64,000 nucleotides of DNA from the NCBI GenBank assembly GCA_048013815.1, contig CM106585.1, positions 3,162,001 through 3,226,000 on the forward strand, in the 5' to 3' direction. Of this stretch, positions 16,501-51,000 are shown in pieces. The first letter of the stretch is position 1. Each line of letters begins with the position of its first letter. Both the position numbers and the translations under genes were made by a program. The DNA comes from Setoptus koraiensis. Its lineage: Eukaryota > Animalia > Arthropoda. The notes below the pieces were generated by a model. The model did no database searches. It was not told the DNA's origin and was given only the letters and a program-made list of their open reading frames with translations.

Positions 16501-19121
16501 ATTTAGTGGCCGTGGACTGCATTGGTCCAATCAACCCCGGGTCAAGACATGTCATGGTCGCTATCGATGTATTTACCAGATTCGTCGAGCTAAAAGTGGT
16601 AAACAACGTATCCGCTAGCGAGTTTGCGAAATTTTTACTCGAAAATATTGTGGCGAGGCATGGTCCGCCGAAGAGTCTTTTGACGGACAACGCAGCCACT
16701 TTCGGTAGTGACACGGTTAGAGAGCTGGAGAAACTCATGATAATTAAACATATTCGAAGTACCCCTACGCACTCGCGTGGCAATGCGGTGGTAGAAAGGG
16801 TGAATCAGACGATTGGGGACAAGTTAGCTATGATCATCTGGGGAGACGACAGCTACCAGAGAGAAAATTGGCCGGAAGCTATACCTTTTGTTGCCTATTC
16901 AATTAACGTTTCGAGACATTCTTCGACAGGTTTTTCACCATTCGAACTGGTCTATGGGCGACAGCCCCAGCTAATGGATGAGACGGTCAAACAAGGGGAA
17001 GTGACCGTCCATCAGCTTTATAGTAAGCTCGTGAAATTACGATTGGAAACAGATATCAAAGAGGCGTATAGAAGCAATAAAGAGGCACAGATGCGTAGTC
17101 GACGTTATTTCAATGCTGAGCATATTCAGAGAGAGTTTAGTGTAGGTGACGTAGTATGGGTGCATAAGAAAGAGGCGAGGAGACCGAAATTGAAGCCACG
17201 GTATGAAGGCCCGTACGTCATTGTGGCTAGAAAACCGCACGACATCTATGAATTGAAACACCTAGAGTCGGATAAGAGCACCATCCTGAGACACGTAAGC
17301 GCGCTCAAGATATGCCATGGAGTGCACAGTGCTGAGTCGGAGACAGAGTCGAATGGAAGTGAAGACAGTGGAGACGAATCGAGAGCGGATGTTGATCTAG
17401 ACGCACCCGCAGGGACGGTCAACGCAGTTCGTAGTCAAGGCACTATGTATCGAGGTGAAACATGGTTGAGAGCTTTCGTGACATTGATGCTATTTTCGGT
17501 CTGCATACAACTCACGGAGACCGCCGAACATGTCTTGTCTGCCGAATCGCCCATTTTGTGGAAACGAACCGAGAAATTTGTCATCACTGGTTTGACAGAG
17601 TACGAATACATGATCGTTTTCGAATCGCCGTGTAATATCTTTATCGGCATGACGGCGGATGCGGCACTAAACAACCAATACTTTGTAGAGTGTCAGACTT
17701 TATTCAAGGCGGTTATACTTAATAAGGTAGGAGCTTGGTGCAGCATCATACCAGAAGCGGTAGCTGACGATTTCGAAATACCAAGTCAAGTGACTAAGTC
17801 TCGTTTTAGGAGAAGCGAAAACAACACAACAGAAGGTGTGAAAGAGAAGAGGCAGGTGGCCGTCGGAATTGCCGCGGGACTGTCTTTAGAGTGGTGCATC
17901 ACGAGGTTGTACGACTCGGTCTCGGGCTATTTCCGGAGGTCGTCTGACCAGGCCACTGAAGAGAACAATAGAGTTATCCAAGAAGAGATAGTGAAGATGC
18001 GAAACACTTTGAACGCATCATTGGTAATCCAAAACGCAAGGAAAGCGGTTTGGGAGGATGTTTTAAGTAACCAAGAGTCCGTTTTGGCGTCCTTGGGGAA
18101 GATCAGCGCGGCGTTTCCACATGCAACGTGGACCTCGATCTACGTGGCAAACTTAATGTACGCTCGATCGAGATACCTGGATGACATCATCCACGAGTGG
18201 AAGCGCGGGCGCATATCCGAATCATTGGGGTATTTGTTGAACTCCACGACGTTAGTGAACTTACTCCCAGCTGCAACGACAGCCAAGAGCTGCTGCCTCC
18301 ATTCCGGGAACATGGTGATGATTAAATTTTGGACAAAGAACGTTGACAGGAACTCGTTTGTGGTCACCGCCGATCCTTTCAAGATTTACACCAATTTAAC
18401 TAGACAACCGACATTGAGGGAGTACTCGGGACCCGTCCATTTGATTTACAATCGTTCTAGTGATTGTACTAAGAGTATAGACGTTGATAACAATATGTTC
18501 ATTTCAGGCAGCTGTACAGAACAGCATCACCATGAGGATTTGAGGAGTATGTGGAGACCGCTGGTCACACATGACACAATCACTGGCATTGTGCCAACAA
18601 ATGAGGCCAAAGTAGATTACAGGGCCATGCATGTATATTGCTATCCCGGAAACATAACCGTGGGAGGGGAAGCAATGAATTGCCCACCTTACGTGTTCAA
18701 AATCGATAATACAATATCATGGAATTTGACAGATCGCTCTTACGCAGCCACTCCTGATTCAATCAAGTTGCAAGCAATTTTAGGGTTTAGAACTTTCGTG
18801 CCCGTACCGTCTACGAAGATCGCTCCCGAAGGGTTGACAATCTTCGATGCCCTTAAACGCATCCAAGAGATGCAAGAAGTTTTGAGCAAGTTAGACAAAG
18901 AATCTCTTGGACTTACTGATCACACTAAGCAAATAGTGACTTTGTCCAAGCATAACGCAACCTTAGATTTCATCTTGCTATTGCTGGTCGCGATGATCGC
19001 GGTATCTGCGTTCAGATGCATCCGAAGTCGCGGAGTCTTTACGCAGACCCAAAACAGAACACAGCATCTAGGATTGAATACAATCGTCGTAGCGCCCGCG
19101 ACGAGTGCTACATCGACTTAA
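13587..19121 (+). CDS. pol: Gag(C-terminal)-Pol-Env single polyprotein (1844 aa as annotated; N-terminus truncated)
   Basis: CCHC knuckle CFKCGRTSHIAREC; protease ALMDTGS; RT LDLASGYWQ/YVDD; RNase H TDAS; integrase HH-CC, DCIGP, TDNA, ERVN, GPY. In-frame signal peptide from ~17445, basic sites RFRR/KEKR, Cys-rich ectodomain, TM (FILLLLVAMIAVSAF). Confidence 0.95.
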   Translation: MSKSVNAIGQTDQNSRQSRRKGVPNRQDSSRRPRSSGDNAGGNNRQERSSKRNKKRECFKCGRTSHIARECYARTKRDGTQIPTQPKNPDRVATIEDNASKVPTRVKQVFSGKAPPNLPSPPSERVGAVQIVGAVRSSEITHPVRIRDRVITALMDTGSEYSLISLNVVNELELRVPRGCKVLLNSPDGKPLSVIGITSQYVCITVGGRDKWGLHDMIVIKDLDADMIIGRSLMDDFDISINVRSRRIMFNDTERVASVSAETPVRGGVYAIRDVVVSPRHQQVIETKINRDATVLMRGHRSNELIVANSLDKAENGKCRVVVANITTEPRLVKAGERLAEFEVLHRPASGVHAVVALQKEAVKGQKATIQVGDGLNDRQIQEIRALVEKYMDVFNYDGRLGKTSLARHSITLKKDCHPVAEPLRRNALVESVEINQQVNEMLEKGVIEESQSPWASAIVLVKKKNGKMRFCVDFRRLNEVTVEWKYPLPRIDDMIDSMRGRKYFTCLDLASGYWQIEMDPVAKPLTAFRTKDGQYQFKRMPFGLVNSGASFQKLVDVLFAGMKGVELQVYVDDICVASPSWKEHLVALEEVFKRVRQAGLVVQHEKCTFGYSETIFLGHKISEDGISPDPSKVKAIHEMPAPTDVHDVRRFLGMTGYYRRFIKNYATVSDALVELTKKDKPFTWGPSEVESFDSLKRALLENATVAHYDPTKELLLKTDASTVGVAGILLQKDGDEFKILSCVSRRLCASERNYGITELEALAIVFSVQQFRPYILGRTVVVLTDHCALCAVGKKRMKSRRLERWACILAEFSLDIRYIKGNKHEDVDCLSRAPIGDEIDHFPAQSVFLVLPVDTDEWIREYENNEEAQRLLAEGAEMFILQGVIYDSDRRLYVPQKFRKGFLERAHDSQLANHGGISATIALLRADYFWPSLAEDVETYVKACETCQRRKAVRAREFGLMNSFDVAMPFDLVAVDCIGPINPGSRHVMVAIDVFTRFVELKVVNNVSASEFAKFLLENIVARHGPPKSLLTDNAATFGSDTVRELEKLMIIKHIRSTPTHSRGNAVVERVNQTIGDKLAMIIWGDDSYQRENWPEAIPFVAYSINVSRHSSTGFSPFELVYGRQPQLMDETVKQGEVTVHQLYSKLVKLRLETDIKEAYRSNKEAQMRSRRYFNAEHIQREFSVGDVVWVHKKEARRPKLKPRYEGPYVIVARKPHDIYELKHLESDKSTILRHVSALKICHGVHSAESETESNGSEDSGDESRADVDLDAPAGTVNAVRSQGTMYRGETWLRAFVTLMLFSVCIQLTETAEHVLSAESPILWKRTEKFVITGLTEYEYMIVFESPCNIFIGMTADAALNNQYFVECQTLFKAVILNKVGAWCSIIPEAVADDFEIPSQVTKSRFRRSENNTTEGVKEKRQVAVGIAAGLSLEWCITRLYDSVSGYFRRSSDQATEENNRVIQEEIVKMRNTLNASLVIQNARKAVWEDVLSNQESVLASLGKISAAFPHATWTSIYVANLMYARSRYLDDIIHEWKRGRISESLGYLLNSTTLVNLLPAATTAKSCCLHSGNMVMIKFWTKNVDRNSFVVTADPFKIYTNLTRQPTLREYSGPVHLIYNRSSDCTKSIDVDNNMFISGSCTEQHHHEDLRSMWRPLVTHDTITGIVPTNEAKVDYRAMHVYCYPGNITVGGEAMNCPPYVFKIDNTISWNLTDRSYAATPDSIKLQAILGFRTFVPVPSTKIAPEGLTIFDALKRIQEMQEVLSKLDKESLGLTDHTKQIVTLSKHNATLDFILLLLVAMIAVSAFRCIRSRGVFTQTQNRTQHLGLNTIVVAPATSATST

Positions 19122-19652: not shown

Positions 19653-19653
19653 A

Positions 19654-24700: not shown

Positions 24701-26738
24701 CCCAACTCTCGACACTCGGCTCAAAACAGATGCCAGTACCGAGGGGTTTGGTGCCATCTTACAGCAGCGCCACCCAAATGGGTGGATGATCGTCGCATGC
24801 GCTTCTAAAAGGTTGAGCGACAGCGAGAAACGTTATTCGGTTACAAAGCTCGAGGCGGCCGCACTCATGTGGGCTATCGACAGGTATCGAGCGTACCTAC
24901 TTGGCAGGCCGTTTACCGTGCTGGTGGACCATTGCGCCCTGTGCGTAATGGGCAAGAAGCGTCCAAGGTCACCTCAGTTAGCACGCTGGGCAATGTTATT
25001 GAACGAATACGACCTTAAAATCGAGTACGTCAAGGGCAAATTACACGCCGACGTAGACTGTTTGTCGCGGAATGCTGTCGACGAACATGATCACATCGCG
25101 GAACGGGCGATTATTTTCATCGGAATGATCATTCCGACCAACACGGACGATTGGATTAACGAATACGAAACCTCAGTGGAAGCCCAAGCTCTCCTTAACA
25201 AAGCGGCCGAAAATGAAGGAATGGTAACGATTGATGATGTGCTATACGACGCCAACAACAAATTATACGTGCCGGCTCGGTTGAGAAGAGAGTTCATATC
25301 CCGGGCCCACGATGATTTGCTTACAGGCCATGGCGGCCGCAAAGCAACATACGAACACCTCCACCGTAATTACTGGTGGCCAAGCATGGTGCTGGATATC
25401 AACAATTATGTAGATAGCTGCGCCATATGCCAACAACGCAAGGTGCCACGGCAAAGGCAAGCTGGTCATATGAGATCGTTCGAGTGTACCTCAGTTTTCG
25501 AGCTCGTCGCTATTGACTGCATTGGGCCGTTGCCACCGTCCACCAAACAGAATAGGCACATATTCGTAGCGATAGACACTTTTTCGAGGTTTGTAGAGGT
25601 GAAAGCGGACGAGGAAGTGTCATCTGTCAAATTCGCGAAATTTCTAATTGCTAATGTGGTGTCCCGATATGGCACACCGCAGCAGATTTTGACAGACAAT
25701 GCTCAAACTTTTGGAGCTGAAGTTGTAAAGGAAGTGTGCAAGCTTTTTGAAATTAAACACCTCCGATCGACTCCCTTGCATTCGCAAGGCAACGCCATTG
25801 TCGAGCGTGTAAACGCAACGATAGGCGACAAACTGGCGATGATAATAAATGGGCACGATCAATTTAGTCGAGACAACTGGGACGACGCTCTGCCCATGAT
25901 CGCATATGCAATAAACACGACCGTACACTCCTCGCTGGGAGTATCACCTTTCGAGTTGATGTACGGTCGAACACCAATTTTGTTAACTAGCGAGACAAAA
26001 GTCAAAAACATGACCGTACACCAACTGTACTCGAAAATGACAAAGTTGCAACTTGAAGCCAACATCGCTATAGCAATCAACTCCAATGCGATGGCAGCCG
26101 CAGCCGCAAAGACCAGATATGACAAAAAAAGATCAAACGTCTCGTTTAGCATAGGTGATAAAGTGTGGGTACTCAAAAATCAAGCCCGTGGCGCAAAGTT
26201 GAGTAATCGTAGCGACGGTCCCTACACTATCTCTGACGTCCGAAACAACAATATTTACGAGATGGAACACGATCAAACCAATAAAAAAATCGTGCGACAT
26301 GTTTCATTGCTACGGAAGTATGTGCCGAGAAACGACTCGAATGAGTCCGACGCAGCAAATAACTCAGACTCCACGACGACATCGCAAACCCCATCAGGCA
26401 GAAGCTCCCATTCCAGGTCATCGAGTGCGTCGAGCGTCCTTACTCAAGCGATAATGTTGATATACGCGGCAACATCAGTAATGTGTAACGGCAACATACG
26501 TCAAGAATCGCCCATCGTCTGGCGAAAGATGGAGTCAACAACGGTGCAAGGTGACAAACACTGGGACCTTGCAATCACTTTTGTGTCGCCCTGCAGAGCC
26601 TTCGTCAATGAGACGCACGACCTGTGTGAGCAATATTATCAGAAAGAAATCGTCGATCGATTAAACGGTTGGTCCATCGACTCGCGGACAAAATGCCTAG
26701 AGAAATATGGGCGGCGCTATATGTACAAGGCAGGATAG
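21762..26738 (+). pseudogene. pol: G2 gag-pol-env(N-terminal) ORF with one premature stop at 22164-22166
   Basis: ORFs 21762-22166 and 22206-26738 are in the same frame. YFPAY*EGSALSW restores a typical gag motif if TAA was TTA. Contains MVDTGA, FIDD, TDAS, rve and GPY motifs and a signal peptide at ~26450. Confidence 0.9.
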
Positions 26739-27790
26739 CTAAGCAGGCAGATTGGTTAAAACAATTCACCAAAACTTGGAAGGCCGGCATGGTGTCGACG
26801 GAACTCGGGGAAATGTTAGCTTCGCCCGAATTGACCAATATCGACACTCATTCCTCATCTGCACGAGAATGCCGGAGTTTGGGAGGATCGGTGACCGGCG
26901 TAAGGCTATCGTTCACCACGAGACTCACCGACCGAAAGTCTTACGTACTGAAGGCCGACCCGTTCGAGGTGTATACTAACCTCACAAGTCGACCTTGTCT
27001 CAGTAGATACCAAGGCAGTGAATACATGCTATTAAATGAGACGGCGAATTGTATAAAACCGCTGGCAGACTCGCATGTAGGCCCATACGTAAACTTTGAT
27101 TGTAGGACTCACAATCACGCGCCTGAGGCGGCGGAACCGTGGAAACCAGTGGCTTGTTTTAAAAACCTTAACCATATCGAGGCTAAAGAGGAAATAAAGA
27201 TCACCCAAAGTAAGGTGTTCGTTTACTGCGTAGGCAACACGATAGAAATCAACGGCCGGACACGAAGGTGCCCGCCGTACGTATTCAGCGTAGACTCCGG
27301 AGCCCAATGGAAAACAAAACACCATTCTTGGTTAACAACGGTCGACGAGAGGAAAAGCGTATCCGTGGATGACTTCAACAACTCCTTATGGAATAGTCTG
27401 CTGCGCTTTAACCCGCACCACGAAGATACGGTCCAAATGATGGATAAGATCTCGGAACTAATTAACCTAACCGAGGGCATGAACCCTGAACGGTTCCGAA
27501 CGGGTCACACATTGCCGACAGAAGACGAGGCACCCTCTATGGTAATGACCATAGTGGTCACCATTGGCCTCACTGCCATTGTATGCAGCATAGCCGCTGT
27601 GTATGTTTGGACGAAGTGTGGTGGCCAGAAGAAGGTCGGTATCTACAACGTACCAGTGTTTTCGGCTCGAAACCGCGGTACGTCCTTAGGGAGAGGGATG
27701 TCACGGCCTGGCCGTGCTGAGCCCGCTGACGAGGAGTTGAGCCTATCGACTCAACTGCCTCGCAGTGTCGCGTTACGCGAGAACGAATAA
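26669..27790 (+). pseudogene. env: G2 env-like C-terminal part, frameshifted; reads into the 3' LTR
   Basis: ADPFEVYTNLT, VYCVGNTIEING...CPPYVF and TM (MVMTIVVTIGLTAIVCSIAAVYVW) align with G1 env. Confidence 0.85.
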
Positions 27791-27892
27791 AAGAGCGAGG
27801 AGAAGGATCATTCTCGTTCGAGTTAAAGGATGTATAAAGCAAAAGAAATAATAAAATATATATACAAAAATACACAAAAATCAACCTTAACA
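27699..27892 (+). repeat. G2 3' LTR
   Basis: Identical to 21457-21650. Confidence 0.95.
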
Positions 27893-30288
27893 TGCGGACA
27901 TAGACAGGTCCGTCCAGCTGTCGTCGTTTACTAACTTTTCTGAGATTTTCTGTTGACTCTGCTGTCTTTTGGTTTCTCCTAAAGCTTGAATTTCCTCTGA
28001 AGTGAGGGATTCAAAGATACTTCTGGACACACCCAACTGCATGTTTATGCGATTTGGGATGTCACCACCCATTGCTGATTGACTAATATTAGACTTCGTA
28101 TATTTATAATTGACACCATCGATTAGGAAGGTGGCTTCCCCCTCAATGGACATTACGTAGTTAGGGCAACTGCGTTTTTCGTTGTTCACGATGATGCTGT
28201 GCCCTTGGCAGTTGACCCGAACATTATGTGCGTCGTGTTTAATTTGGATTGCGGGTCCAACTGCTGGCAGAGCCGATTGCTTTCTGCAGTCAAACGGTGT
28301 AAATGTTGTAATATTAGTCAGAGGGTTGCGGTGTGTGCAGCCTTGGCTGATCACCACACCGTCTTGGATTTCCTTTTCAAGGAGCGGCCTGAAACAGTCA
28401 GAAGTGGTGTTGTACATCACATACTCGGGCCCTGTGTACCGGAATGTACATAGTAGACCCTCATGAAGGGCTATATAGCTAAAGGGGTCTGCCCTCATGA
28501 TGACTACATGAGGACTGGTTCTGAGAAGGGTGAGTTGAATTAGGAATTCATTGTTTTGCACATTCCAATGATGCACGGTGGAGTGTTTTAGTGTGCCTTT
28601 TTCCATTATGCCCGTTATATTGAAGATTTCCAGCAGCACCAGTGGAACTTCTCCGTTCCGGTGCAACTCGCTCTTGAGCTGCTGAATCTTCTTCTTTTCT
28701 TCGTTGAATTTAGACAGTGTTTGAAATAACGCTGCGTTTATGCTGGCTTGGGCCAGTGCTATATCACCGAGGTGGTCGATGTCCCGTTCAAGTTTGCCAA
28801 CCATCGTTGCTACTTTGGTGTCAAACAGGGCTATCTTATGTTGCAGTGAGATGAGTTTGTGATCCAGTCGATTTGTCATCTCTTGAAGATTGCTGATTGA
28901 GTCCGTGCTTGATTTGTCTGACAACCAATTGGAGATAGAGAAGTAAAGTGCCGATATTGATGTGATCATGGTGAGAGCGACTGCTTCACGCGTCTTTCTG
29001 ATATTGGAGGACAAACCGAGCGCTGCGACGTTGTCTGTAACATCTTCTCTGAACCTTCGAGAACACGCTTCTACAATGCTCTGATCGAGTCTTTTGACAC
29101 CTGTCATGTTTGAAAACAGTGTTGGGCAAGGGTCGTGGAATAACAGGCGTAGGTTATAATCAACTTGCCCTTCTACATGTGCAGCGTCCATTTTTCGCCA
29201 TATTATAGGATCCTCGACATGGAAAGTACTCTCAACCGAGGTGCACATAAGCATAATGCTGCAGAGCAGAACCATTGCACAGTTCATCGCCCTAGTGACG
29301 GTGGTTGTGGTTGGTTGGGAGGCTGTGTACATTGCTACGTCTTGTAAGCCAATTTTCGACCTCATGTCTGCGTGCATCTTTGGACTCAAGGGCTTGGTCA
29401 ACATGTCTGCTTTTTGCTCAGATGATGGGATGTATTGTACTTGAAACTCCTCATTATTAAGGTTTTCTCTGATGTGTAGAAGCCGGATGTCTAAGTGCTT
29501 GGTTCGTGAGTGATACTCAGGATTTTTCATGAGTTTAATAGTCGGTTGGTTGTCCACCATTAGCTTAATTCGTTGATGGCTTACTTTCAGTTCGCTGAAA
29601 ATTTTATTGAGCCATAAAATTTCCTTGGCCGCTAGGTTGGCTGCGATTAGTTCTGCCTCGGTCGTGGATAGTGCGACCAGGCCTTGTTGTTTGCTTAAAA
29701 ACGTTATTGGTCCACCAGCTACAAAGGAGATGACTCCGCTAGTCGACCTTCGCGTTTTTATGTCGCCGGCCCAGTCGGCGTCGGAGTAGCAAACGATATC
29801 AGATTTATTGTCGGCTGTAAACATCAGTCCGAGTTGGTCAGTGCCTTTGAGGTACCTAAGTATGCGCTTGGCGGCTGACCAGTGTTTTTCAAGGGGGCAG
29901 CTGTTAAATTTGGCCAGTGTGCAAACTGCGTGTAGTATGTCGGGTCTGGTGCCACATGCGCAGTACAGCAGTGAACCAATGAGCTCCCTGTATGGAGCGC
30001 TGGTTTCAATGTCGTTTTCGGAAATTTCTTGCAATTCTTTGAGGTCAGCCATCATCGGCGATGGTGCGGGTAGGCAGTCGGCCATTTTGTATAGTTCCAG
30101 CATTCGGTGAATGTAAGCTCGTTGGTGTAGAATGGTTCTTTGCTCGTTTGATATCACTTCATATCCTATAAAACAATCTGTACTTACTTGTCTCACACTC
30201 AAGTTCAGCTTCAAGTATGCAAACAGTTCGTCGAGCGCTTCTTGGCTGGTCGAGAAGGCGACGCCATCATCGACGTAGACTATCAGCC
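27893..30288 (-). CDS. pol: Copia RT C-terminus, RNase H and in-frame env-like ectodomain (truncated at both ends)
   Basis: LIVYVDD, YRELIGSLLY...TRPDI, YSDADWAGD..TRRSTSG, STTEAE, TKHLDIR and QKADMLTKPL are Copia motifs. The same frame continues into a signal peptide (~29287), RKTR plus hydrophobic peptide, heptads and a Cys-rich domain. Confidence 0.92.
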
Positions 30289-30788
30289 NNNNNNNNNNNN
30301 NNNNNNNNNNNNNNNNNNNNNNNNNNNNNNNNNNNNNNNNNNNNNNNNNNNNNNNNNNNNNNNNNNNNNNNNNNNNNNNNNNNNNNNNNNNNNNNNNNNN
30401 NNNNNNNNNNNNNNNNNNNNNNNNNNNNNNNNNNNNNNNNNNNNNNNNNNNNNNNNNNNNNNNNNNNNNNNNNNNNNNNNNNNNNNNNNNNNNNNNNNNN
30501 NNNNNNNNNNNNNNNNNNNNNNNNNNNNNNNNNNNNNNNNNNNNNNNNNNNNNNNNNNNNNNNNNNNNNNNNNNNNNNNNNNNNNNNNNNNNNNNNNNNN
30601 NNNNNNNNNNNNNNNNNNNNNNNNNNNNNNNNNNNNNNNNNNNNNNNNNNNNNNNNNNNNNNNNNNNNNNNNNNNNNNNNNNNNNNNNNNNNNNNNNNNN
30701 NNNNNNNNNNNNNNNNNNNNNNNNNNNNNNNNNNNNNNNNNNNNNNNNNNNNNNNNNNNNNNNNNNNNNNNNNNNNNNNNNNNNNNNN
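30289..30788. other. Assembly gap (500 N)
   Basis: Run of N. Confidence 1.
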
Positions 30789-33700
30789 GAGACTATCATC
30801 AGAAATTCGAATTTTCAATTTCGAATTTCGAAGTTCGAATTGTGGCCACCGAACTTCGAATTGTAACCATCGAACATCGAACGAGCAGATGAAACTATCA
30901 TCAGAAAATCGAATTTTCAATTTCGAATTTCGAATTGTTACCACCGAATTTCGAAATGTGACCATCGAACTGTGACCATCAAATTTCGATAGAGCAGATA
31001 AAATTATCATCAGGAAATCAAATTTTCAATTTTGAATTTCGAAGTTCGAATTGTGACCATCGAACTCTGACCATGGAACTACGACCATCGAACTTCGACG
31101 AAGCAGCTGAATCTCATTTCAGAAAATCAAATTTTCAATTTCCAATTTCGAAGTTCGAAATTCGAATTGTCACCACCGAACTCTGACCATAGAACTAAGA
31201 ACACTGAACCACTAACTTCGAACTAGCAGCTGAAACTCCCATGAGAAATTCGAATTTTCAATTTTGAATTTCGAATTGTTACCACCGAACTTCGAAATGT
31301 GACCATCGAACTCTGACCCCCGAACACTGAACATCGAACTCCGACCATCGAACTCCGGCAGAGAAGCTGAGACTATCATCAGAAAATCGAATTTTCAATT
31401 TCGAATTGTTACCACCGAACTTCGAAATGTGACCATCGAACTCCGACCACCGAACACTGACAATCGAACATCGAACGAGCAGATGAAACTATCATCAGGA
31501 ATTCGAATTTTCAATTTCGAATTGTGACCATCGAACTCTGACCATCGAACACTGACCACCGAACTCCGACAGAGCAGATGAAACTATCACTAGAAAATCG
31601 AATTCTCAATTTCGAACTTCGAAGTTCGAAATGTGACCATCGAACTCTGACCAACGAACACTGACCACCGAACTCCGACAGAGCAGATGAGACTATCATC
31701 AGAAATTCGAATTTTCAATTTCGAATTTCGAAGTTCGAATTGTGGCCACCGAACTTCGAATTGTAACCATCGAACATCGAACGAGCAGATGAAACTATCA
31801 TCAGAAAATCGAATTTTCAATTTCGAATTTCGAATTGTTACCACCGAATTTCGAAATGTGACCATCGAACTGTGACCATCAAATTTCGATAGAGCAGATA
31901 AAATTATCATCAGGAAATCAAATTTTCAATTTTGAATTTCGAAGTTCGAATTGTGACCATCGAACTCTGACCATGGAACTACGACCATCGAACTTCGACG
32001 AAGCAGCTGAATCTCATTTCAGAAAATCAAATTTTCAATTTCCAATTTCGAAGTTCGAAATTCGAATTGTCACCACCGAACTCTGACCATAGAACTAAGA
32101 ACACTGAACCACTAACTTCGAACTAGCAGCTGAAACTCCCATGAGAAATTCGAATTTTCAATTTTGAATTTCGAATTGTTACCACCGAACTTCGAAATGT
32201 GACCATCGAACTCTGACCCCCGAACACTGAACATCGAACTCCGACCATCGAACTCCGGCAGAGAAGCTGAGACTATCATCAGAAAATCGAATTTTCAATT
32301 TCGAATTGTTACCACCGAACTTCGAAATGTGACCATCGAACTCCGACCACCGAACACTGACAATCGAACATCGAACGAGCAGATGAAACTATCATCAGGA
32401 ATTCGAATTTTCAATTTCGAATTGTGACCATCGAACTCTGACCATCGAACACTGACCACCGAACTCCGACAGAGCAGATGAAACTATCACTAGAAAATCG
32501 AATTCTCAATTTCGAACTTCGAAGTTCGAAATGTGACCATCGAACTCTGACCAACGAACACTGACCACCGAACTCCGACAGAGCAGATGAGACTATCATC
32601 AGAAATTCGAATTTTCAATTTCGAATTTCGAAGTTCGAATTGTGGCCACCGAACTTCGAATTGTAACCATCGAACATCGAACGAGCAGATGAAACTATCA
32701 TCAGAAAATCGAATTTTCAATTTCGAATTTCGAATTGTTACCACCGAATTTCGAAATGTGACCATCGAACTGTGACCATCAAATTTCGATAGAGCAGATA
32801 AAATTATCATCAGGAAATCAAATTTTCAATTTTGAATTTCGAAGTTCGAAATGTGACCATCGAACTCCGACCACCGAACACTGACAATCGAACATCGAAC
32901 GAGCAGATGAAACTATCATCAGGAATTCGAATTTTCAATTTCGAATTGTTACCACCGAACTTCGAATTGTGACCATCGAACTCTGACCATCGAACACTGA
33001 CCACCGAACTCCGACAGAGCAGATGAAACTATCACTAGAAAATCGAATTCTCAATTTCGAATTTCGAAGTTCGAAATGTGACCATCGAACTCTGACCATC
33101 GAACACTGACCACCGAACTCCGACAGAGCAGATGAGACTATCATCAGAAATTCGAATTTTCAATTTCGAATTTCGAAGTTCGAATTGTGGCCACCGAACT
33201 TCGAATTGTAACCATCGAACATCGAACGAGCAGATGAAACTATCATCAGAAAATCGAATTTTCAATTTCGAATTTCGAATTGTTACCACCGAATTTCGAA
33301 ATGTGACCATCGAACTGTGACCATCAAATTTCGATAGAGCAGATAAAATTATCATCAGGAAATCAAATTTTCAATTTTGAATTTCGAAGTTCGAATTGTG
33401 ACCATCGAACTCTGACCATGGAACTACGACCATCGAACTTCGACGAAGCAGCTGAATCTCATTTCAGAAAATCAAATTTTCAATTTCCAATTTCGAAGTT
33501 CGAAATTCGAATTGTCACCACCGAACTCTGACCATAGAACTAAGAACACTGAACCACTAACTTCGAACTAGCAGCTGAAACTCCCATGAGAAATTCGAAT
33601 TTTCAATTTTGAATTTCGAATTGTTACCACCGAACTTCGAAATGTGACCATCGAACTCTGACCCCCGAACACTGAACATCGAACTCCGACCATCGAACTC

Positions 33701-34510: not shown

Positions 34511-34760
34511 GAAGTTCGATTTGTCACCACCGAGCTCCTCACAAATTCGACCTAGTCAAATCTCCATAGGATTGCATACGAAATATTTTCGAGTAAAGCG
34601 ATAATAGACCAAGTCAAATCTACATCGGAATACATGTGTAATATCTAGCAGGATTCTCACAAATTTGACTAAGTCAAACCTCCATAGGATTACATAGTCA
34701 CGTGAATAAACCTAGTCATCATCACCACCCCAATAGCAGCTTAATTAAAATTAAGCGCTA
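30789..34760 (-). mobile_element. HINE with expanded satellite; 3' end hidden in or beyond the gap
   Basis: The satellite runs directly into the conserved block ending GCTTAATTAAAATTAAGCGCTAA (34739-34761). Confidence 0.75.
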
Positions 34761-38710: not shown

Positions 38711-40560
38711 ACAGACTTGTTGCTCGCGAATGAGGCCTGCGTATAGGCATGGTTCGGATAGCGTTGGTTTCAAACTAGTGCCTTGGAGTATTTTATCTAA
38801 GTTGTCCTTCCAGACTCGTGGGGCTTGCTTAAGCCCGTACAGGCTCTTGTTGAGCTTTAGAGTGTGGGTGTTTGGGCATTCAACTCCGGCTGGCGGTGCC
38901 ATGTATACTTCCTCATTTAGTGTTCCATGAAGGAAGGCGGTTTGCACGTCAAACTGCATTCTCTTCATTTTGTTTATGGTCGCTAAAGCAAATATTAATC
39001 GCACGGATTCGTGTCTGGCGATAGGCGCAAAAGTTTCACTGTAATCAATGCCCGCCCGTTGTTCAAAGCCACGGGCTACTAGACGGGCTTTGAACCGCTC
39101 TACTTTGCCGTCTGGCAGTAGTTTCCTTTTGAAGATCCATCTTGAGCTCAGAGGTTTTGCATTCGCAGGTCGTTCTATGATGGACCAAGTTTCGTTTGAT
39201 GTCAGAGCATCTATCTCCTCTCGGACTGCCTTTCCCCATTCTTCTGATTCTGCGCACTTCATTGCATCGGCGTACGAGGATGGTTCTTCGTACGCTACGT
39301 AGGCATTGTGGTCTCTGTTAAAGAAATTTGTGATCCCTTTAGTGATCGATCTCGTTATTGGTCGATTTGTTCGTTGTGGTGAGTGTATCTCGACGGTTGT
39401 GCTCTCGGCTGGTGCGGGTGAGGAGGTCTCGTCAGTTTGAGAGCCATCATCCTCCGAAGTGAGTGCTGGCCCATCGTCACCACTGGATGAGTCTGAGCCC
39501 TGGGATGCTCCATCATGTGTGTCGTTTCCGACGGCAGACTCAAAGTGAGTTGTCGTGCTGGTGTGATCTGCCGCATCTTCCTGTGTCGGAGCTTGCTGCA
39601 CATGGCCAGGAAATTGATGTGTTGTTTCTGTGCTTTCTGGAGTCGCTCCATCACTGTCCTTCTTGGACGTGCTTTCGGGAGGTGTAAAAATTACGTTTGG
39701 CGTTACGAGAACGCTTTGTTTGGACGGCAAAGAGCACCTGTAGGTGTTTGACCGTGCAGTGAAGCCTACCACGTAGGCTTCAGTTGTTTTCGGGTCCCAC
39801 TTGGATCCTGTCCTGGGCAGACTGAGGACTTGTGCCTTGGTGCCAAACTCAACGATGTGGCTGACGTTTGGCGTTCTCCCAAACCAAGTCTCGTAAGCAG
39901 TTTTCCCTGTTTCTTGGTTGATTGTGGTTCGGTTCAGAGTGTATACTGCAGTGTTCACTGCCTCTGACCACAGTCTATTGTTCAGGGTGCTGGAGGTGAG
40001 CATCGTCCTAGCAGTTTCAATGACTGTTCTATTCGAACGTTCTGCTAGGCCGTTTTGTTCTGGGCAGTATGGTGAGCTGGTTTTCAGGCTCACATGTTCG
40101 ATGGCCAGCATCACCTTCACTCGCTCGTTCACGAATTCGGTTCCGTTGTCCACCCACAGGGTGTTTAGCCGGAAACCTGTTTCGTTTTCAATGGTGGCGA
40201 TGAACTCTTGTAGGTATGTGGCCACTTCGTCTTTTGATTTTAGCATGTATACCGACCGGTACCTGCTGGCCTCGTCGGTAAGCAGTAGAAAGTATTTGGA
40301 TCGGCCTACGCTCTCGGGGCTGATTGGTCCAACTATATCTCCGTGAACAGTCTGTCCAACTTTGGTGGCTTTTTCGCGTTTTGAAGTCGGGTGTGACACC
40401 CGAGTCCCCTTGCCACTTGGACATTTGCCGCATTTGGAGTGCTTTTCATCTCCAATTATCTTAACGCCTGCAATCAGACCTTTTGCCACCAACGTGTTGA
40501 GCTGTTGGTTGCCAATGTGGCCGAGACACTTGTGCCATTCAGCCTTGTTCTCTCGTTGCG
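38711..40560 (-). pseudogene. pol: Copia GAG-pre-integrase, integrase and RT N-terminus
   Basis: WHKCLGH, VHGDIVGP, WVDNGTEF, PEQNGLAER, RFKARLVARGF, FDVQTAFLHG and LYGLKQAPRVW. Frame differs from gag-PR through an apparent 1-nt frameshift near 40560. Confidence 0.9.
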
Positions 40561-41808
40561 CATGACCAAAGCATTGTGGTGCTGTCTAGCGACCTGAAGG
40601 CGATACAGTCCGTTCGAGTTGATGCGCTCTCCGATGAGGATGACGGAATCCTCGCAGATGAACAGGCATGACTCGCCTTTGAAGACTATTTTCATGCCCG
40701 CACGTGTGGCTGCTCCTATCGAGATTAGATTCACTGAAAGTCCAGGTACGTATAGCACCCTGGACAATCTGAATCTACTCTCTCTGCCGTTTGCGAGTTC
40801 GCCTTTCAGGACTAATTGGCCCACTCCTTTTGCCAATATTGTATCGTTGTTTCCCATCTTCACAACGCTGCCCTGGTTGAACTGCTCGTAGTTGCTGAAG
40901 CCATCAGTGCTTCTCGACATGTGCGCCGATGCCCCCGAATCCGCAAACCACGTATCTTCAGACTCATGAGGTGGAGATAATTGGGGCTGAATATCGTTGA
41001 TGGCCATGAAGGCTACATTGTCTGGTGTGTCTGTCTGTCTGGACTCACCCCGGTTACTTCGCTTCCTATCATTGTATGCCTTCTTTCTGCACTCCGAGAT
41101 CCAGTGGCCGGGCTTCTTGCAGTAGAAGCATTCCGAGTCCTTCTTCGTTGTTTCGGACCTTCTTTTTGCCACTGGGTTGGTGTCACCTATTCTGGCCTCA
41201 GACAATAATGCTGCCTCTGCTGTTGCGTTGGGCCTTCTTGCCTTGAGCTGAGCCTCATCTTGAATTAATCGGTCGATGAGGTTGTTCAGGGTTTTGTCCG
41301 CCTGGCTGGTGGCATTCCATGCACGGGCGAAGCCGTCAAACTGGTCGGTCAGGCCACCAACAAGTCGAGCACGGATGAGTCGTTCCGACACGACTTCTCC
41401 TGTGCTCGTTATTTCGCTAGCTGTTGATTCAACTCTTCCTATCCAGTTTGCCATGTTCTCATTCGGCTCCATCTTCATGTTGCAGAAGGAGTTGATGAGA
41501 GCTTCTACGTTGCCTTCTCCGCGCAGCTCGTAGACGCTGGCGAGTCTAGCCCATATCTGATGGGCTGTCTCACACGTCATGACCTTGGTCACTACCTCGG
41601 GCTCGAGTGCACTGGCTAGTATGACCTGGGCCTCCGCATCTCGGTCCACAAACTTTGAATCATTCTTGTCGGGTTGGTTGAAGATGATGTCTTCTAGTTT
41701 TCGACTGGCTATGATGCGCTTCAGTTGGAACTTCCAACTCTGATAGTTTTTGCCATTTAATCTTGGCACACTGACGTTCTGATTTGTCTTAGAGACTTCT
41801 TCTGACAT
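40474..41808 (-). CDS. gag: Copia gag and protease
   Basis: LNGKNYQSWKF gag start, CFYCKKPGHWISEC knuckle, WFADSGASAHM protease, VLYVPGLSVNLISI. Confidence 0.9.
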   Translation of the reverse strand: MSEEVSKTNQNVSVPRLNGKNYQSWKFQLKRIIASRKLEDIIFNQPDKNDSKFVDRDAEAQVILASALEPEVVTKVMTCETAHQIWARLASVYELRGEGNVEALINSFCNMKMEPNENMANWIGRVESTASEITSTGEVVSERLIRARLVGGLTDQFDGFARAWNATSQADKTLNNLIDRLIQDEAQLKARRPNATAEAALLSEARIGDTNPVAKRRSETTKKDSECFYCKKPGHWISECRKKAYNDRKRSNRGESRQTDTPDNVAFMAINDIQPQLSPPHESEDTWFADSGASAHMSRSTDGFSNYEQFNQGSVVKMGNNDTILAKGVGQLVLKGELANGRESRFRLSRVLYVPGLSVNLISIGAATRAGMKIVFKGESCLFICEDSVILIGERINSNGLYRLQVARQHHNALVMRNERTRLNGTSVSATLATNSSTRWWQKV

Positions 41809-41810
41809 GC

Positions 41811-41892
41811 TGACTTCGGCTTACTGACTTTGGCTTGCTAACTTCGGCTTGCTAACTTCGGCTTGCTGACTTCGGCTTGCTAACTTTGGCTG
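41811..41892. repeat. 14-bp tandem repeat in the Copia 5' UTR (~6 copies)
   Basis: T(G/A)ACTT(C/T)GGCTT(G/A)C units. Confidence 0.85.
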
Positions 41893-41915
41893 TTAACCGC
41901 TTAGAAATTGTCAAA

Positions 41916-42221
41916 TGTAGTACTGATTGATGCTGGTTTTATTGATAGAATTCTGAACAACGTATATTTTGTTTTTAAACAAAAATGGTGTTAGTGCAGT
42001 TTTTACACAAGAGTATGTGTCAATGTTCCTGCAGTGTGCAGTTCTATTTATACGCGTGTGTGTGGCCAATTAGTGACACTCGGCCCTTAATTGCTATTGT
42101 CTGGGGTAATAAATGGTCACACGGACGTGGCCATTTTATTACCCCAGATGGGACAGGATGGGATGCCTACTGGCCTGTCCCTGCATCAAAGGAGCCGCTG
42201 CGACAGACTAGTGGCACCACA
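41916..42221 (-). repeat. Probable Copia 5' LTR (~306 bp)
   Basis: Minus strand TGTGGTGC...GTACTACA (imperfect terminal inverted repeat), with TATAAATA then AATAAA in the expected order. No canonical PBS seen and the partner LTR is absent. Confidence 0.5.
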
Positions 42222-43804
42222 AATTAAGATGAGGATTGTTTATTCAACAAGTACCGTTTAAATATAGATGCGAGTATGTGATAATATGTCGGAGTTGAAC
42301 ATCTATGCTTGTCGAATCAGAGTAGCCGTAAAGATGACATAATAAATACAAGTCATGCTGGTCCAAGGCAATCACAAAATGGTCGATTGTCGGGACGTTC
42401 AATGCTGGCAAGGCATATTGGGACTGGCTAAACCCAGAAGTATTCAATATGCTGTTCGCTTTGGCCCGAGCCAAAATCAAGGATAAATCAATTTCTCGGG
42501 CAATCTTGGGCACCTTTCCATATAGTCCGAAATTGTTGTCAAGGAGACAAACAGATGAACAACGTCCGGAGCATATGTAGAGTTAATAATGCTACATTGG
42601 AGGTGATGAAACTCAACGGATTCAGGCAAACACTTGGCCAAGGACGCTTCGACGTAATTCTTGACAACATCGCGCTTTTTCAGCAGGTCGTTCTGGCATA
42701 GGCTCAAATACTCTTGATTGGCTCTGTCCAAGAGGTATGGCAAGTGTAATGTTTAGATACTTTAACATGTTAATCGAGAGACTCAAATCTCCATAAGGTT
42801 AACATGTGTAATGTTTAGATACTTTAACATGGTAATCGAGAGACTCAAATCTCCATAAAGTTAACATGTGAAATGTTTAGATACTTTAACACAGAAATTG
42901 AGAGACTCAAATCTCCACAGGGTTAACATGTGTAATGTTTAGATACTTTAACATGTTAATCGAGAGACTCAAATCTCCAGAAGGTTAGCATGTGTAATGT
43001 TTAGATACTTTAACAAAAAAATTGAGAAACTCAAATCTCCATAAGGTTAACATGTGTAATGTTTAGATACTTTAACACGGGAATTGAGAGACTCAAATCT
43101 CCACAGGGTTAACATGTTTAATGTTTAGATACTTTAACATCAATCAACCATTGATCAAATTGGACTAAGGTGCTGCGAAATTCCCCATCATTGAAATAAC
43201 CTTCTTCGTGCTCAACCAACAAATGATCTCTAGTCTCATTGTAGAACTCGAACCACGAATGTAAACAAGCTACAGAGCCAGCTATCTACACACGAGACTT
43301 GTAATCAACAATTTGTAAACAAGTAAACGAGCCAGGTATCTACACACGAGACTGTGAAGCAACAACATGTAAACAAATTTTGAACAGCTAGAATGTGATG
43401 ATGAGGTGGCAGACTTAGATTAAGATCATGTCTGTAGCTTATTGTGTGCTAGGGAGCGTAGCGACTTGAGTCTTTATCAAGCTGTAGCTTACTGTGTGCT
43501 GAGGAGGTTGAGCGACTTAAGTCTTAAACTAGTGTGTATCCTACTGTGTGCTGAGGAGGTGGAGCGACTTAAGTCTTAATCAAGCTGTAGCCTACTGTGT
43601 GCTGAGGAGGTGGAGTGACTCAATCAAGCTGTAGCCCACTGTGTGCTGAGGAGGTGGAGCGACTTAAGTCTCATTCAGGCTGTAGCTTTCTGTGTGCTAA
43701 GGAGGGGGCGTGACTCAAAATTGTAGGCTTGTGTGTGGATTGCCTCCTCCATTTAGGATCCAACATCACTACATCATTAGCGCTTAATTAAAATTAAGCG
43801 CTAA
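42222..43804 (-). mobile_element. HINE copy Z (3' end lost at the Copia junction)
   Basis: Perfect palindrome TTAGCGCTTAATT-aa-AATTAAGCGCTAA at 43777-43804; 62-bp repeats related to 281-650; 42250-42330 is homologous to 8235-8320. Confidence 0.7.
42745..43140. repeat. 62-bp tandem repeat (~6.5 copies)
   Basis: TGTAATGTTTAGATACTTTAACA unit at 42745, 42807 and onward. Confidence 0.9.
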
Positions 43805-46639: not shown

Positions 46640-48091
46640 TCAACTCTTGGTATCGTCGTCATCTTCCTCCGACTGTTGAACGACGTGTGCTATTATCGGT
46701 CTGTTTCTGTACCTCCTGGCAACGATCCAAGATGCTATGCAGACTAATCCCGTAAGCAATATAACAGCCAAAGCTTGTTGTGTCTTGGTGAGCATGTTTT
46801 GCGTGTCCAGCAACATATTTTCTTGTGATTCCCATGTATATGATAGACTGTCTAAATCAATCGTAGGATTGAATTTAAACTTGACCATTTCTAGTAACTC
46901 CCTCATAGGTGCCAGATCTTGTTTGAGGTGTATCTGTCCAAACTCGTAGGTGTGGCCTTCAATCATTACTGGCACATTAAGAGCCAATTTAAATGGTTTT
47001 ACAGGGCACGGATATGTCTGGTTATACACTGATACGTTATAGGGATAGCAATAAATTACCAACCCATCTATATCCTGTAAAACCTGAATCGCATCGTGCG
47101 GGGTCAGCTTACTCTTGGGCAACTTTCTTGTTATCTTCCATTGATCGCTTTGTACAAGGTTATCGATACACTCAAGGTGTGGTGATAGGTACGCCATATT
47201 TCCATTAATTTCCAGATGACCCACCTGTGTTAAAATAGCACAGCTTTTGTTCGTATTGAAAACAAAAGTCTTGGGACCATGATACTCGATTACATCATAG
47301 AAGGTTCCGTTTTCCCTGAGTACTCTAAAAGGCTGAATTTTCATGATTTTCAAATGTTTGCTCATTAAATTAATAGTAAATTCTAATTCGGCTTGACTTC
47401 TTAATTCATCTAACCGACAACTCAACGGTTTTCCCGAATTGAGGAGGCAATCCCCAGAGCAATATGTGTTGAGCGGGATGATGCTAAATATTGCAGGGTT
47501 CAGGATATCCCTGTCCCAATCTCTCCCAATCGCCTCCAACATCATTTTCAGAGTAGTTAATCTGGCTATAGCACTGGCCATGTGCATGGTTGCGTCATTA
47601 TTGTAATCTATATAGCGGTACAGTGTCTGATTGACTTGGTCTACTCTCATAGCTAAATTCTTTAAATTTTGGTCTTGCGTTTTTACTGTCCCCATCACGT
47701 CTTGTATAACGCTCTTCAAAATCAGGATCTCCTTGGTGGCGGCCTCGTGAGCTGAGTCTATTGAGTTAAATTTGATCTCATTTCTTATAGTGGTTGCTGC
47801 TGTTGCCAAAAAATTGAACGCTACCGAGCCTATTAGTATTGCTGGTGCCAACAATAATGGGACTATCCGTTTTATCCTGAGATGAAACGCTCTCGGCTCC
47901 GCTACGATTTCTCGTTTACTTTTCTTCTTATTCTTGTTGTTGAATATTTCTCGAATTGCAGTAATCAAAGGGTCGGTCGGTTTCAATTTTAGACTATTGA
48001 ACTTCGTTATAAAGTCCGCATCGGTTTCCACATTGTCATGGTCTCGTTGATGCGTAACTGATCCGTGACTCTCCCCCCTACCGCCTTGCAA
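46640..48091 (-). CDS. env: G3 env-like glycoprotein (frameshifted from the polyprotein)
   Basis: RIKR site followed by hydrophobic IVPLLLAPAILIGSVAFNFLA, heptads, IYCYPYNVSVYNQTYPCPV and TM (ALAVILLTGLVCIASWIVA). Confidence 0.85.
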   Translation of the reverse strand: MQGGRGESHGSVTHQRDHDNVETDADFITKFNSLKLKPTDPLITAIREIFNNKNKKKSKREIVAEPRAFHLRIKRIVPLLLAPAILIGSVAFNFLATAATTIRNEIKFNSIDSAHEAATKEILILKSVIQDVMGTVKTQDQNLKNLAMRVDQVNQTLYRYIDYNNDATMHMASAIARLTTLKMMLEAIGRDWDRDILNPAIFSIIPLNTYCSGDCLLNSGKPLSCRLDELRSQAELEFTINLMSKHLKIMKIQPFRVLRENGTFYDVIEYHGPKTFVFNTNKSCAILTQVGHLEINGNMAYLSPHLECIDNLVQSDQWKITRKLPKSKLTPHDAIQVLQDIDGLVIYCYPYNVSVYNQTYPCPVKPFKLALNVPVMIEGHTYEFGQIHLKQDLAPMRELLEMVKFKFNPTIDLDSLSYTWESQENMLLDTQNMLTKTQQALAVILLTGLVCIASWIVARRYRNRPIIAHVVQQSEEDDDDTKS

Positions 48092-51000
48092 AATCCTCTC
48101 AACGGCGTTTTAAGATCTTCTTCAATCATTTTGTAACAAAAATTAATACTCTGATTGATAGATTCCTTAGATCCCATCATATGTGTTTCCAGTGACCCAC
48201 AAGGATCTTCGTAGTTTAAAACGACAACTGCTCGCTGGTAACCAGTAATTACGTTCTCTCCGGTTGATTTGTAAGTTATAAAATTTGTTAATGTAAATGG
48301 TCCGTCCGCGATGCTCCCTGCTACAAGACACATGAACAACATGATTTGGAGTACATTTCTCCCCAATTTTTCATATACCAGCGTCTTCGGAGCAAACCTA
48401 ACTCTTGAGGAGCGTCTTGGTGTTGCCGCTACACTAGTTTCATTGGAGCCGTCTGCCTCCTCATTAGAGGGACTAGACAATGGTGTTTCGTACACATCAT
48501 CAGATGAATGGTCCTCCTCCAGTGCCTCTTCTCTTATTATCGTGTCGTCATCACCGTCATCTAGTTCCACCGCGCTACTAGATTCTCCGCCCTCTTCCAG
48601 CGAGAAAGACGCGTTTTCCGTACTGTTTATTACCCACTCTGGAAATACTTCTTGATCATCTTCTACCTCTTCGTTGTCATCGCCAGTTACTTCCTCAGCG
48701 ATAAGTTCCTCGCTGAGTTCACCATAATTTATGTACTCTGACTCTAGTCCATTGATGACATCGCCGTCGCAATCCTGTTCTTCGGTCTCATCTGGATCAT
48801 GCTGTGTCGCAATTTGATCTGGCAAGTTCCTCACGTGAAATTTCTTCATTCTCGAAATGTGAACCGAGTCCTTTTTTGTTTTTGTACCGTCTTGACTCCT
48901 CACTTCATATACCAACGGAGATATCTGTCTTAAAACTATGAATGGACCTCTCCATCGATGCAGGAGTTTTGTCGACATGCCCACCTTTCTTACTGGCGTG
49001 AATACCAGAACCAAATCTCCTGTTTTGAACTCAAAGCTTTTTCGCCGCGTATCGTGTTGCGCCTTCTGTCGTAGTGACGCTCTTTTGTTATTGTCCGCTG
49101 CTATCCCCTTTGCCTGGGTCAAAAACTGAAGCATACTTTCAATATACTGGTCTTGAGCTTCCACCCCCGTGGTTTTGTGGACGTACGCTGAGTCAAAGGG
49201 GAGCTTTAATTCCCTACCGTAAACTAAGAATGCTGGTGCATAACCTGTTGATTCCTGCACAGAGGTGTTATAGGCCATGGTCAAAAAGGGTATGCTTACA
49301 TCCCAATCGTCTTGTCGAACGTTGGTTTGTTTGGCAATCATGGTGGCAAACGTTTTATTGGCTCTTTCAGTTAACCCATTGCACTGGGGATGGTATGCTG
49401 TGGTCCTAATGTGTTTCGACGATACTAACGCAAAGATGTTTTCGGCTAATCTTGAGCAAAAGTTACTTCCCCTGTCTGACAAAATTCTTAACGGGCTGCC
49501 ATGCCTACACACGATGTCCTCCACAAAAAATTTCGCTACATCCCAGGTGGTCGCGGACCTCAACGCTTTGCATTCAACATATTTGGTAAAGTAGTCTGTA
49601 GCTAGGACTATCCATTTATTCCCGCTGCTTGACGTTTTGAATGGGCCCATCATATCGATGCCGACTAATTCGAACGGCCCTCCTGTGTTTATGGGTACTA
49701 ATTGTCCCGCCGTTAATGTCGTGGGACTATTTTTTGTCTGACAGTCCACGCAGGTTTTCACATAGTGCGCTACCTTTTCATACATTTTGTCAAAGTAAAA
49801 TCGCTCTGCCACTCGTCTCATAGTTTTAGTTCTACCGAGGTGGCCTCCAAACGGGTCATCGTGGCAGGCTCTGAGAATGTCAATTATCCTTGTTTGCGGA
49901 ACACATATAACCAATTTCGGCCCCGTTCCTGTGTCTATTGCTCTGTGTAATACATTGTTGATCAGAACGAATTTTTGGTCAACTCCTTCATTTCTACCAT
50001 CGTCACTCATCCCACTTATGATTTTATTTAGTTGTTCGTCCTCTCTTTGCTCATTGATAAAGTCAATCGGGAGTTCCGCCTCTACGGCATTGCAATGTAA
50101 TGTATTTCGGGAAACATAATCGGCGTCTTCATGATGACGGCCGCTACGATATTTTACTTCATAGTTGTGGCTTTGTAGCTCTAATGCCCATCGAATCAGC
50201 CTAGGCGGCAACTGTCGTTTATTTTTGATCCAGCATAATGCGACATGGTCGGTGACGATAATGAACTTACTGCCACTAAGAAAGTGTGATAACTTTTTAA
50301 TAGCCCAAACTGCTGCTAATAACTCCTTCTCTGTAATTGTGTAATTTACTTCCGCTTTTTTCAATGATCTGCTTATGTAATAAACCGGGTGATACCCATC
50401 GTCATATTCCTGCAACAGGATTGCTCCTATGCCATCGTTGCACGCATCCGTACGGAGCTCAATAGGTAATTTCTCATTGAAATGTCGTAATACAGGATAT
50501 TCGCAGAGTTTCTTCTTGATCAGATCGAAAGCCCATTGCTCCTTTTCTCCCCAGCTAAATTCTCGGCCCTTCTTTGTTAATTCGTGCAAGGGCCCCGCAA
50601 TAGTAGAGAAGTCCTTAATAAACTTTCGATAGTAAGAACTCGAACCTAAAAATTGTCTAACTTCTTTGACCGAAGCAGGTGCTAGTTTATCCGCGATTCC
50701 CGCCACCTTTGATTTGTCCATCGCTATGCCTTGACCGTTAACAACGTGACCCAGAAACTCAATCTCCTCGATACCAAACTTGCATTTAGACGGTTGCAAT
50801 GTCAGGCCAGCCTCACAGATGGCACATAATACTTCATATAAGGAAACCAAGAAATTGTCAAACGTACTACCAAACACGATTATATCGTCCAGGTATACAA
50901 GACAGTGCTTATATTTTAGTTGTCCTAAAATGATGTCCATTGCTCTCTGAAATGTTGGGGGAGCATTCATCAAACCCATTGGCATGACTTTAAACTCAAA

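Follow-up and report, generated by a model that had tools for sequence, protein, structure and literature searches.

The 64,000-nt stretch of Setoptus koraiensis DNA analysed here (the window) probably contains a broken copy of a Ty1/Copia retrotransposon whose pol frame continues into a predicted F-type class I envelope protein (Env). This copy would belong to a set of Copia lineages whose env genes were likely traded with Gypsy elements in the distant past. It is found on the minus strand as two fragments, which are composed of the following parts:

41900..42249, minus strand: candidate Copia 5' LTR, with a TGTTG start at 42,249 and internal TATA-like and AATAAA motifs recognised by eye; its 3' end is approximate
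40474..41820, minus strand: Copia gag, zinc knuckle and protease ORF, with an ATG at 41,808 (Pfam Retrotran_gag_2, 5.5e-24; zf-CCHC; Pol_BBD, 6.8e-22)
38712..40585, minus strand: Copia integrase and 5' part of RT (Pfam gag_pre-integrs, rve, SH3_retrovirus, and RVT_2 positions 1-163 at 7.7e-46)
29288..30288, minus strand: 3' part of RT, RNase H and Thr-rich spacer, 37% identical over 314 columns to the Copia polyprotein P0002
27893..29287, minus strand: predicted F-type Env ectodomain of 465 aa, in frame with pol and ending short of the anchor

The fragment at 27,893-30,288 harbors a frame open from 30,289 down to 27,890 (800 codons), limited upstream by an N gap at 30,289. Its RT portion corresponds to RVT_2 positions 166-243 (E 0.003, under the curated Pfam cut-off), and the absent part of RVT_2 is supplied by the second fragment of the same strand (38,712-42,249), which carries the LTR candidate, gag, protease, integrase and RVT_2 positions 1-163. 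The Pfam order Pol_BBD, gag_pre-integrs, rve and RVT_2 is that of PR-IN-RT-RH with a Copia-type RT, and the gag, combining Retrotran_gag_2 and zf-CCHC, is also of Copia type. An earlier note on this DNA, made from its letters, had proposed a Copia element with an in-frame env, and the Pfam Copia domains together with the 800-codon frame bear this out. The motifs that it listed were found in place: RNase H ends with ADMLTKPL (29,410-29,387, minus strand), and is followed in the open frame by a Thr-rich spacer, the Env methionine at 29,287 opening a signal-like peptide, and RKTR. Base composition does not set env apart from pol (GC3 of 0.51 and 0.52, respectively).

A single LTR candidate is seen, at ~41,900-42,249, and the 3' LTR and PPT are absent from the window. 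The bases that follow it (41,888-41,899) resemble, as we take it, the complement of the tRNA-Asn anticodon arm, a likeness that would presumably suggest hemivirus-like half-tRNA priming; the contigs of runs X1 and X3 do not agree with the window at position 41,899, and no tRNA genes were found in the 64-kb window. The pol frame is broken near 40,540-40,585, where the contigs of X1, X2 and X3 display no indel rows; since the break is common to these three runs, the main form of the element is likely dead. The local copy, broken and with its env truncated in the window, is likely dead as well.

The stretch is present in six of the twelve listed runs, from four studies; no RNA run carrying it was found among the listed runs, and 159 pattern matches in metagenome contigs gave no confirmed case. 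Contigs were compared from X1, X2, X4 and X5 over 26,400-30,289, and from X1, X2, X3 and X5 over 38,450-42,660. X1 and X4 derive from one sample, possibly the source, and X2 and X5 from other studies, the contigs of X2 being closely like those of X1. The RNase H-env junction (~29290-29410), singled out earlier as the place to look for a misassembly, is bridged by contigs in all four compared runs, from three studies, with lengths of 1,164 nt (X1), 5,985 nt (X2), 227 nt (X4) and 205 nt (X5, depth 3). Fragments of repeats make up the window as a mosaic, and its join at 27,892/27,893 is supported by none of the listed contigs; it might be asked on these grounds whether RNase H and env were brought together by chimeric assembly or by an isolated nested insertion. 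For this junction, such a reading is refuted by the contigs, by 63 independent Copia pol-env proteins and by the congruence of their pol and env clades (see below), and we leave it virtually no chance.

The end of env in the window is a different matter. The last codon and stop of the ORF (27,892-27,887) lie inside the 3' LTR of the Gypsy element G2 and, env being cut at 27,893, the window holds no transmembrane anchor for it. Beyond 27,893, the env contigs of all four runs carry on with other letters. The G2 LTR is a separate 194-nt contig at ~2x interior depth in both X1 and X2, and its right flank in these contigs differs from that in the window; this alternative flank opens, by eye, with the same four letters that precede the G2 5' LTR, as expected from a target-site duplication. 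In the contigs listed, the continuations and the alternative flank indicate that the join at 27,893 likely arose by misassembly or by an uncommon rearrangement, with the caveat that contigs lose rare variants. Both the env continuation and the alternative G2 flank were sought within the window and neither was found there.

In the X2 contig of 5,985 nt, the order is 41,900-42,249, 822 nt absent from the window, 27,893-30,288 and 38,712-41,128, and the same 822-nt link is found in a 2,740-nt contig of X1. From these paths, the two Copia fragments form one element in the reads, and env extends past 27,893. The 822 nt correspond to 274 codons, as compared with 242-279 residues past the equivalent cut point in the nine closest relatives, and would encode an anchor and an extra Cys-rich domain as in those relatives. 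That env leads on into the 5' LTR is probably due to collapse of the two LTRs and pruning of their flanks; a circle with one LTR or a tandem array may also account for it. At 42,249, the edge of the LTR candidate, the contigs of X1, X2 and X3 depart from the window; the 5' flank of the element is a repeat with a depth above 5,000. Other forms may coexist. A contig of X3 follows the window across 38,712 by 30 letters, one below the bridging rule, and a truly interrupted Copia copy may be present in that sample. An element with an internal deletion also seems to be present in X1, where one contig stops at 29,183 and, by eye, its loose end matches sequence close to 39,214.

Within Env, the following features are delineated:

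29222..29287, minus strand: signal-like hydrophobic peptide, with a Kyte-Doolittle peak of 1.96, the sole peak of at least 1.4 in Env
28928..28999, minus strand: basic site RKTR (28,999-28,988) and putative fusion peptide
28655..28906, minus strand: predicted heptad helix, residues 128-211, from AlphaFold secondary structure (pLDDT <50 here)
28100..28591, minus strand: Cys-containing β-rich domain, the best conserved part of Env

The signal peptide is assigned by hydropathy alone. The RKTR site is present as had been claimed, but the hydrophobic peptide said to follow it stays under 1.4 in a 19-residue hydropathy scan, making the putative fusion peptide only moderately hydrophobic. Heptad repeats and a Cys-rich domain had also been read from the letters; a long helix and a β-rich Cys domain are indeed predicted by AlphaFold, but the model, built from a 4-row alignment, is poor (mean pLDDT 41, pTM 0.25), with an F-like order of elements. 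Five sequons are found in the Copia Env, and near-invariant residues in a 67-row family alignment are F269, Y284, G286, C298, C317, C360, C374 and P375.

Pfam returns no match in the Copia Env, and its Fusion_gly family is recognised in one of the 67 family members only (E 0.0016). Three tests, each weak alone, are concordant and point to an F-type (paramyxo/pneumovirus-like) fold. The top ESM Atlas clusters, mostly viral, are those of Fusion_gly (0.96, with 218 of 256 features shared), followed by Baculo_F clusters (0.90-0.91); the recognition value of 1516, below the 2300 guide, makes this score weak evidence. A Foldseek search of the PDB with the model gave 46 listed rows, all of them pneumo- or paramyxovirus F (best E 3e-5, TM-scores <0.2). 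Finally, the 67-row family profile matches paramyxovirus F0 (E 2e-6), mostly over the fusion-peptide/heptad part, a region that also matches designed coiled coils and an ERV-K chain; a 4-row profile retrieved nothing useful from the PDB. Between the class I fusogens suggested at the outset, paramyxovirus F and baculovirus F, these results favour the paramyxo/pneumovirus type. The Copia Env and the F proteins of RSV, hMPV and henipavirus share the same predicted order of signal, F2, basic site, fusion peptide, heptad helix and β-rich domains, and pneumo/paramyxovirus F proteins are its best structural and profile matches, yet identity reaches only 8-14%. Unlike viral F, the Copia Env is the tail of a retrotransposon polyprotein, and its closest relatives add a hydrophobic segment and a ~200-aa Cys-rich helical domain.

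Three further env-bearing elements, G1, G2 and G3, all Ty3/gypsy by Pfam, are present in the window:

17445..19121, plus strand: G1 env, in frame with G1 pol
26436..27790, plus strand: G2 env, in two frames
27699..27892, plus strand: G2 3' LTR, a copy of the 5' LTR at 21,457-21,650, which gives the Copia env its apparent stop
46640..48357, minus strand: G3 env, in two frames

BLASTP aligns the Copia Env with that of G1 at E 3e-18 (20% identity over 500 columns) and with that of G2 at E 4e-14. Local scores with the Copia Env amount to 217 for G1, 155 and 95 for the two halves of G2, and 101 and 59 for those of G3, and each of these scores was reached by none of 500 shuffles. The BLASTP and shuffle results place the homology between the Copia and Gypsy Envs far above chance, and the resemblance to the Gypsy Envs that the earlier note had seen by eye is real. 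Two env fragments also occur in the window: one at 9,310-10,453 matches the G1 env across a frame change, and one at 58,960-59,268 is 81% identical to the start of the G3 env. Compared with the Copia Env, the stretch at 9,683-10,450 fails the shuffle test (332/500).

A word-index protein search returned nothing at near length and only P0002 at longer lengths, which was the first independent Copia gag-pol-env protein to be found. An HMM profile search then matched 1,083 representatives; the 7-row profile leans towards Copia, as its rows include the Envs of the window copy and of P0002. Among the best 150 of these 1,083, BLAST of the region upstream of env assigned a Copia pol directly upstream to 63, a Gypsy pol to 29, and no pol to the other 58. 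The Copia pol-env layout is thus recurrent, not a one-off. Pfam, applied to 25 Copia-labelled proteins, identified RVT_2 in 20, Pol_BBD only in one (P0075, degenerate) and nothing in four short ones; in 22 Gypsy-labelled proteins, it identified Gypsy-type domains in 18, nothing in four and RVT_2 in none. Single ORFs of at least 1,770 aa account for 29 of the 63 Copia pol-env proteins.

Motifs were counted in the 60 Copia relatives with a recognisable RNase H end, three being dropped. A hydrophobic stretch just after RNase H scores at least 2.0 in 46 of them and 1.73-1.99 in the other 14. A basic site followed by a hydrophobic peptide is observed in 44/60, and a C-terminal hydrophobic anchor in 53 of the 56 that are long enough. 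Nine close relatives of the window Env (P0007, P0010, P0011, P0014, P0015, P0017, P0038, P0041 and P0110) possess, after the anchor, a second hydrophobic segment and a Cys-rich domain of ~200 aa (C-terminal 210-240 aa) with six invariant Cys, and three other relatives end sooner, 31-77 residues past the equivalent of the window cut. This extra domain is modelled as a helical bundle (pLDDT 63) and may be a second exported protein. No Pfam match was obtained for it in P0007 or P0015, the best Atlas value was 0.77 and the best PDB profile E-value 0.24. Foldseek gave no match at E 0.001 in a viral structure library, a structure search gave generic helical-bundle matches only (Z up to 6.6), and no similarity to the env profile was detected. 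These results show neither a known nor a new fold. In-frame tails are also observed after Gypsy-linked or unassigned Envs in P0033, P0035, P0062, P0065, P0074, P0082, P0083, P0089, P0100 and P0115, which by eye resemble the N-terminal part of Env, repeated in shortened form and equipped with a separate signal and a hydrophobic end; the tail of P0064 looks exonuclease-like by eye.

The closest matches of the window Copia Env are Copia-linked: P0012 (40% identity), P0017 (35%) and P0011 (35%). The earlier note had gone further than homology and proposed that one env had moved between the superfamilies in this very host. A recent acquisition from co-resident G1 or G2 agrees with the presence of three env-bearing Gypsy elements in the same window with the same in-frame pol-env layout, and with the shared-region score of the window Env, which is 163 with G1 and 139 with Copia P0002. 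Against it, the 20 best BLAST matches, at 30-45% identity, are Copia-linked or unassigned Envs, the first Gypsy Env appearing at rank 21. Furthermore, uniting the window Env, G1 and G2 in one clade is rejected (AU p 4e-12), as is a clade of its whole group with the G1/G2 group (p 2e-9, the G1/G2 group having been named after a tree was seen). The same-host swap is not supported for this copy, whose Env is 30-40% identical to other Copia Envs and ~20% to that of G1, and a recent origin from G1 or G2 is very improbable.

The more general part of the claim, that env has crossed between the superfamilies, stands, although not as a single move in this host. Copia env monophyly is rejected with p 1.6e-40, and with p 2.7e-40 when a mixture model and Pfam-backed labels are used; since the Copia Envs are not one clade, env likely moved repeatedly between Copia and Gypsy. 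In a 97-row env tree, which omits the 58 unlabelled rows, the Copia label needs eight changes, six of them forced by starred branches, versus 27 when shuffled. Five changes are needed in a 30-row IQ-TREE tree, and five, of which four are forced, in a 24-row mixture-model tree with Pfam-backed labels, both sets having been hand-picked after the 97-row tree was seen. The clade of the window Env is sister to Gypsy P0034 (support 100/99 and 98/96), the Env of Copia P0009 nests with those of G2 and Gypsy P0006 (99/96), and Copia P0090/P0131 are sister to Gypsy P0150/P0122 (100/99), both of the latter labels being from BLAST only. If any swap between Gypsy and Copia was comparatively recent, the strongest candidate is P0009, whose Copia label comes from BLAST and motif with no Pfam match. 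When 51 Copia rows, without P0075 and 13 rows with short upstream parts, are placed in an RT/RNase H tree, the env clades are recovered almost perfectly, with eight label changes (minimum seven, shuffled mean 30). Taken from these trees, env likely stays with its own pol inside lineages, yet crossed between Copia and Gypsy several times, long ago. The env trees are unrooted, with ~20% identity between clades, and comprise neither exogenous viral F proteins nor env-less Copia elements, and for these reasons give neither the direction nor the dates of the moves.

Such trees, holding no viral F proteins and no root, would also accommodate separate captures of F genes by Copia and by Gypsy from a pool of unsampled invertebrate viruses. 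The mostly viral nature of the top Atlas clusters is in line with this, as is the env of the rotifer element TelKA, described as paramyxovirus-derived in the available part of PMC5408684. Separate captures are harder to reconcile with the strongly supported direct sister relationships between Copia and Gypsy Envs at several places, and with the use by both of the same env position and in-frame signal junction. We regard this alternative as unlikely, but as one that retains some weight beside exchange between the two superfamilies.

The mechanism proposed for an uninterrupted element is drawn from what is established for viral polyproteins and for class I fusogens. As an internal signal, the hydrophobic stretch that follows RNase H would direct Env into the ER, and signal peptidase would free it from Gag-Pol; alternatively, Env might be produced from a spliced or internally started RNA, the Met at 29,287 preceding the signal. 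Env would then be glycosylated, and a furin-like cut at the basic site would expose the fusion peptide. Held by its C-terminal anchor, it would provide a fusogenic envelope to budding capsids, and the resulting particles could fuse with and enter other cells, for example from soma to germ line. An animal setting of these Copia elements is suggested by analogy, from where F-type env retroelements are known.

A different use of the F-like Env, in which the elements are non-infectious and Env serves an intracellular or host-interaction role such as particle trafficking or superinfection block, would agree with the ICTV description of pseudovirid particles as non-infectious and intracellular (PMC8515867), with the modest hydrophobicity of the fusion peptide here and with the failure of the basic-site rule in 16/60 relatives. 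Conservation of the signal, cleavage site, Cys scaffold and anchor across at least five divergent clades speaks against this role and fits selection on fusion, and we consider such a role quite unlikely. A wider proposition can be made, on which we are evenly divided: that the Pseudoviridae hold several old and widespread lineages of enveloped, cell-to-cell infectious animal elements, drawing on one F-type env pool swapped with Ty3/gypsy, the window lineage adding a second exported protein, Cys-rich, that might serve in attachment or host modulation.

F-type env is already known in Gypsy, and it is the Copia lineage with a predicted F-type envelope that appears to be new. The F-type ENV Ty3/gypsy errantiviruses (Chary & Hayashi, eLife 2026, PMC13524379) share with it, as described in the accessible part of that paper, an F-like env after pol, a signal, a furin site, a fusion peptide and an anchor, as well as an env diverging together with pol; G1-G3 fit this description. 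They differ by their Ty3/gypsy pol (RT-RH-IN), in contrast with the Copia pol found here (IN before RT, RVT_2), which makes the exchange one across superfamilies. In the available parts of PMC13524379, all elements are classed as Ty3/gypsy, the supplement files contain the word "copia" 0 times, and env-like ORFs of Ty1/copia-like elements appear in one general clause only. The plant Sireviruses share a Copia pol and an extra downstream gene, but their env is a putative third ORF, found in plants only (PMC8515867), whereas env here is in frame with pol, not a separate ORF, and F-like. Whether the env-like ORFs of plant copia and gypsy elements encode envelopes is called unclear in the part of PMC5408684 consulted. 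Rotifer TelKA, the BEL/Pao element Roo and lokiretrovirus are LTR retroelements with a paramyxo/pneumovirus-like F, and none of them is Copia according to the accessible sections of PMC5408684 and PMC13524379. The ICTV profile describes pseudovirids without an extracellular phase and names env for plant sireviruses only (PMC8515867). The literature searched yielded no account of Copia elements with an F-type env, with Repbase, GyDB and most subscription journals lying outside the search, and none is described in the available portions of PMC5408684, PMC6563192, PMC12440569, PMC8672886, PMC2774666 and PMC13269885. If true, an F-type env in Copia lineages would mean that the last of the LTR superfamilies also has retrovirus-like members, and that env genes crossed more than once between the two most distant LTR groups. 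Such repeated crossing bears on how often retroviruses arise.

Other features of the window were also recorded. Small ORFs at 19,125-19,652, 19,642-20,130 and 43,910-44,392 look chromodomain-like by eye, the first two following the G1 env; Pfam gave no match in those at 19,125-19,652 and 43,910-44,392. A 24-nt hairpin motif occurs at 13,549-13,572, 34,736-34,759, 35,983-36,006, 43,779-43,802 and 58,859-58,882 (0 expected), and at least three of these five copies are followed abruptly by a fragment of an unrelated element; the motif is either an element terminus or a mark of assembly join points. Between the two halves of the Copia element, a satellite (30,789-34,500) has units of 95-130 nt and, at a higher order, an exact repeat of 900 nt. 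Finally, an IS1595/ISXO2-like DDE transposase is encoded at 61,836-62,876 (Pfam 7e-22); eukaryotic relatives of this type are named Merlin.
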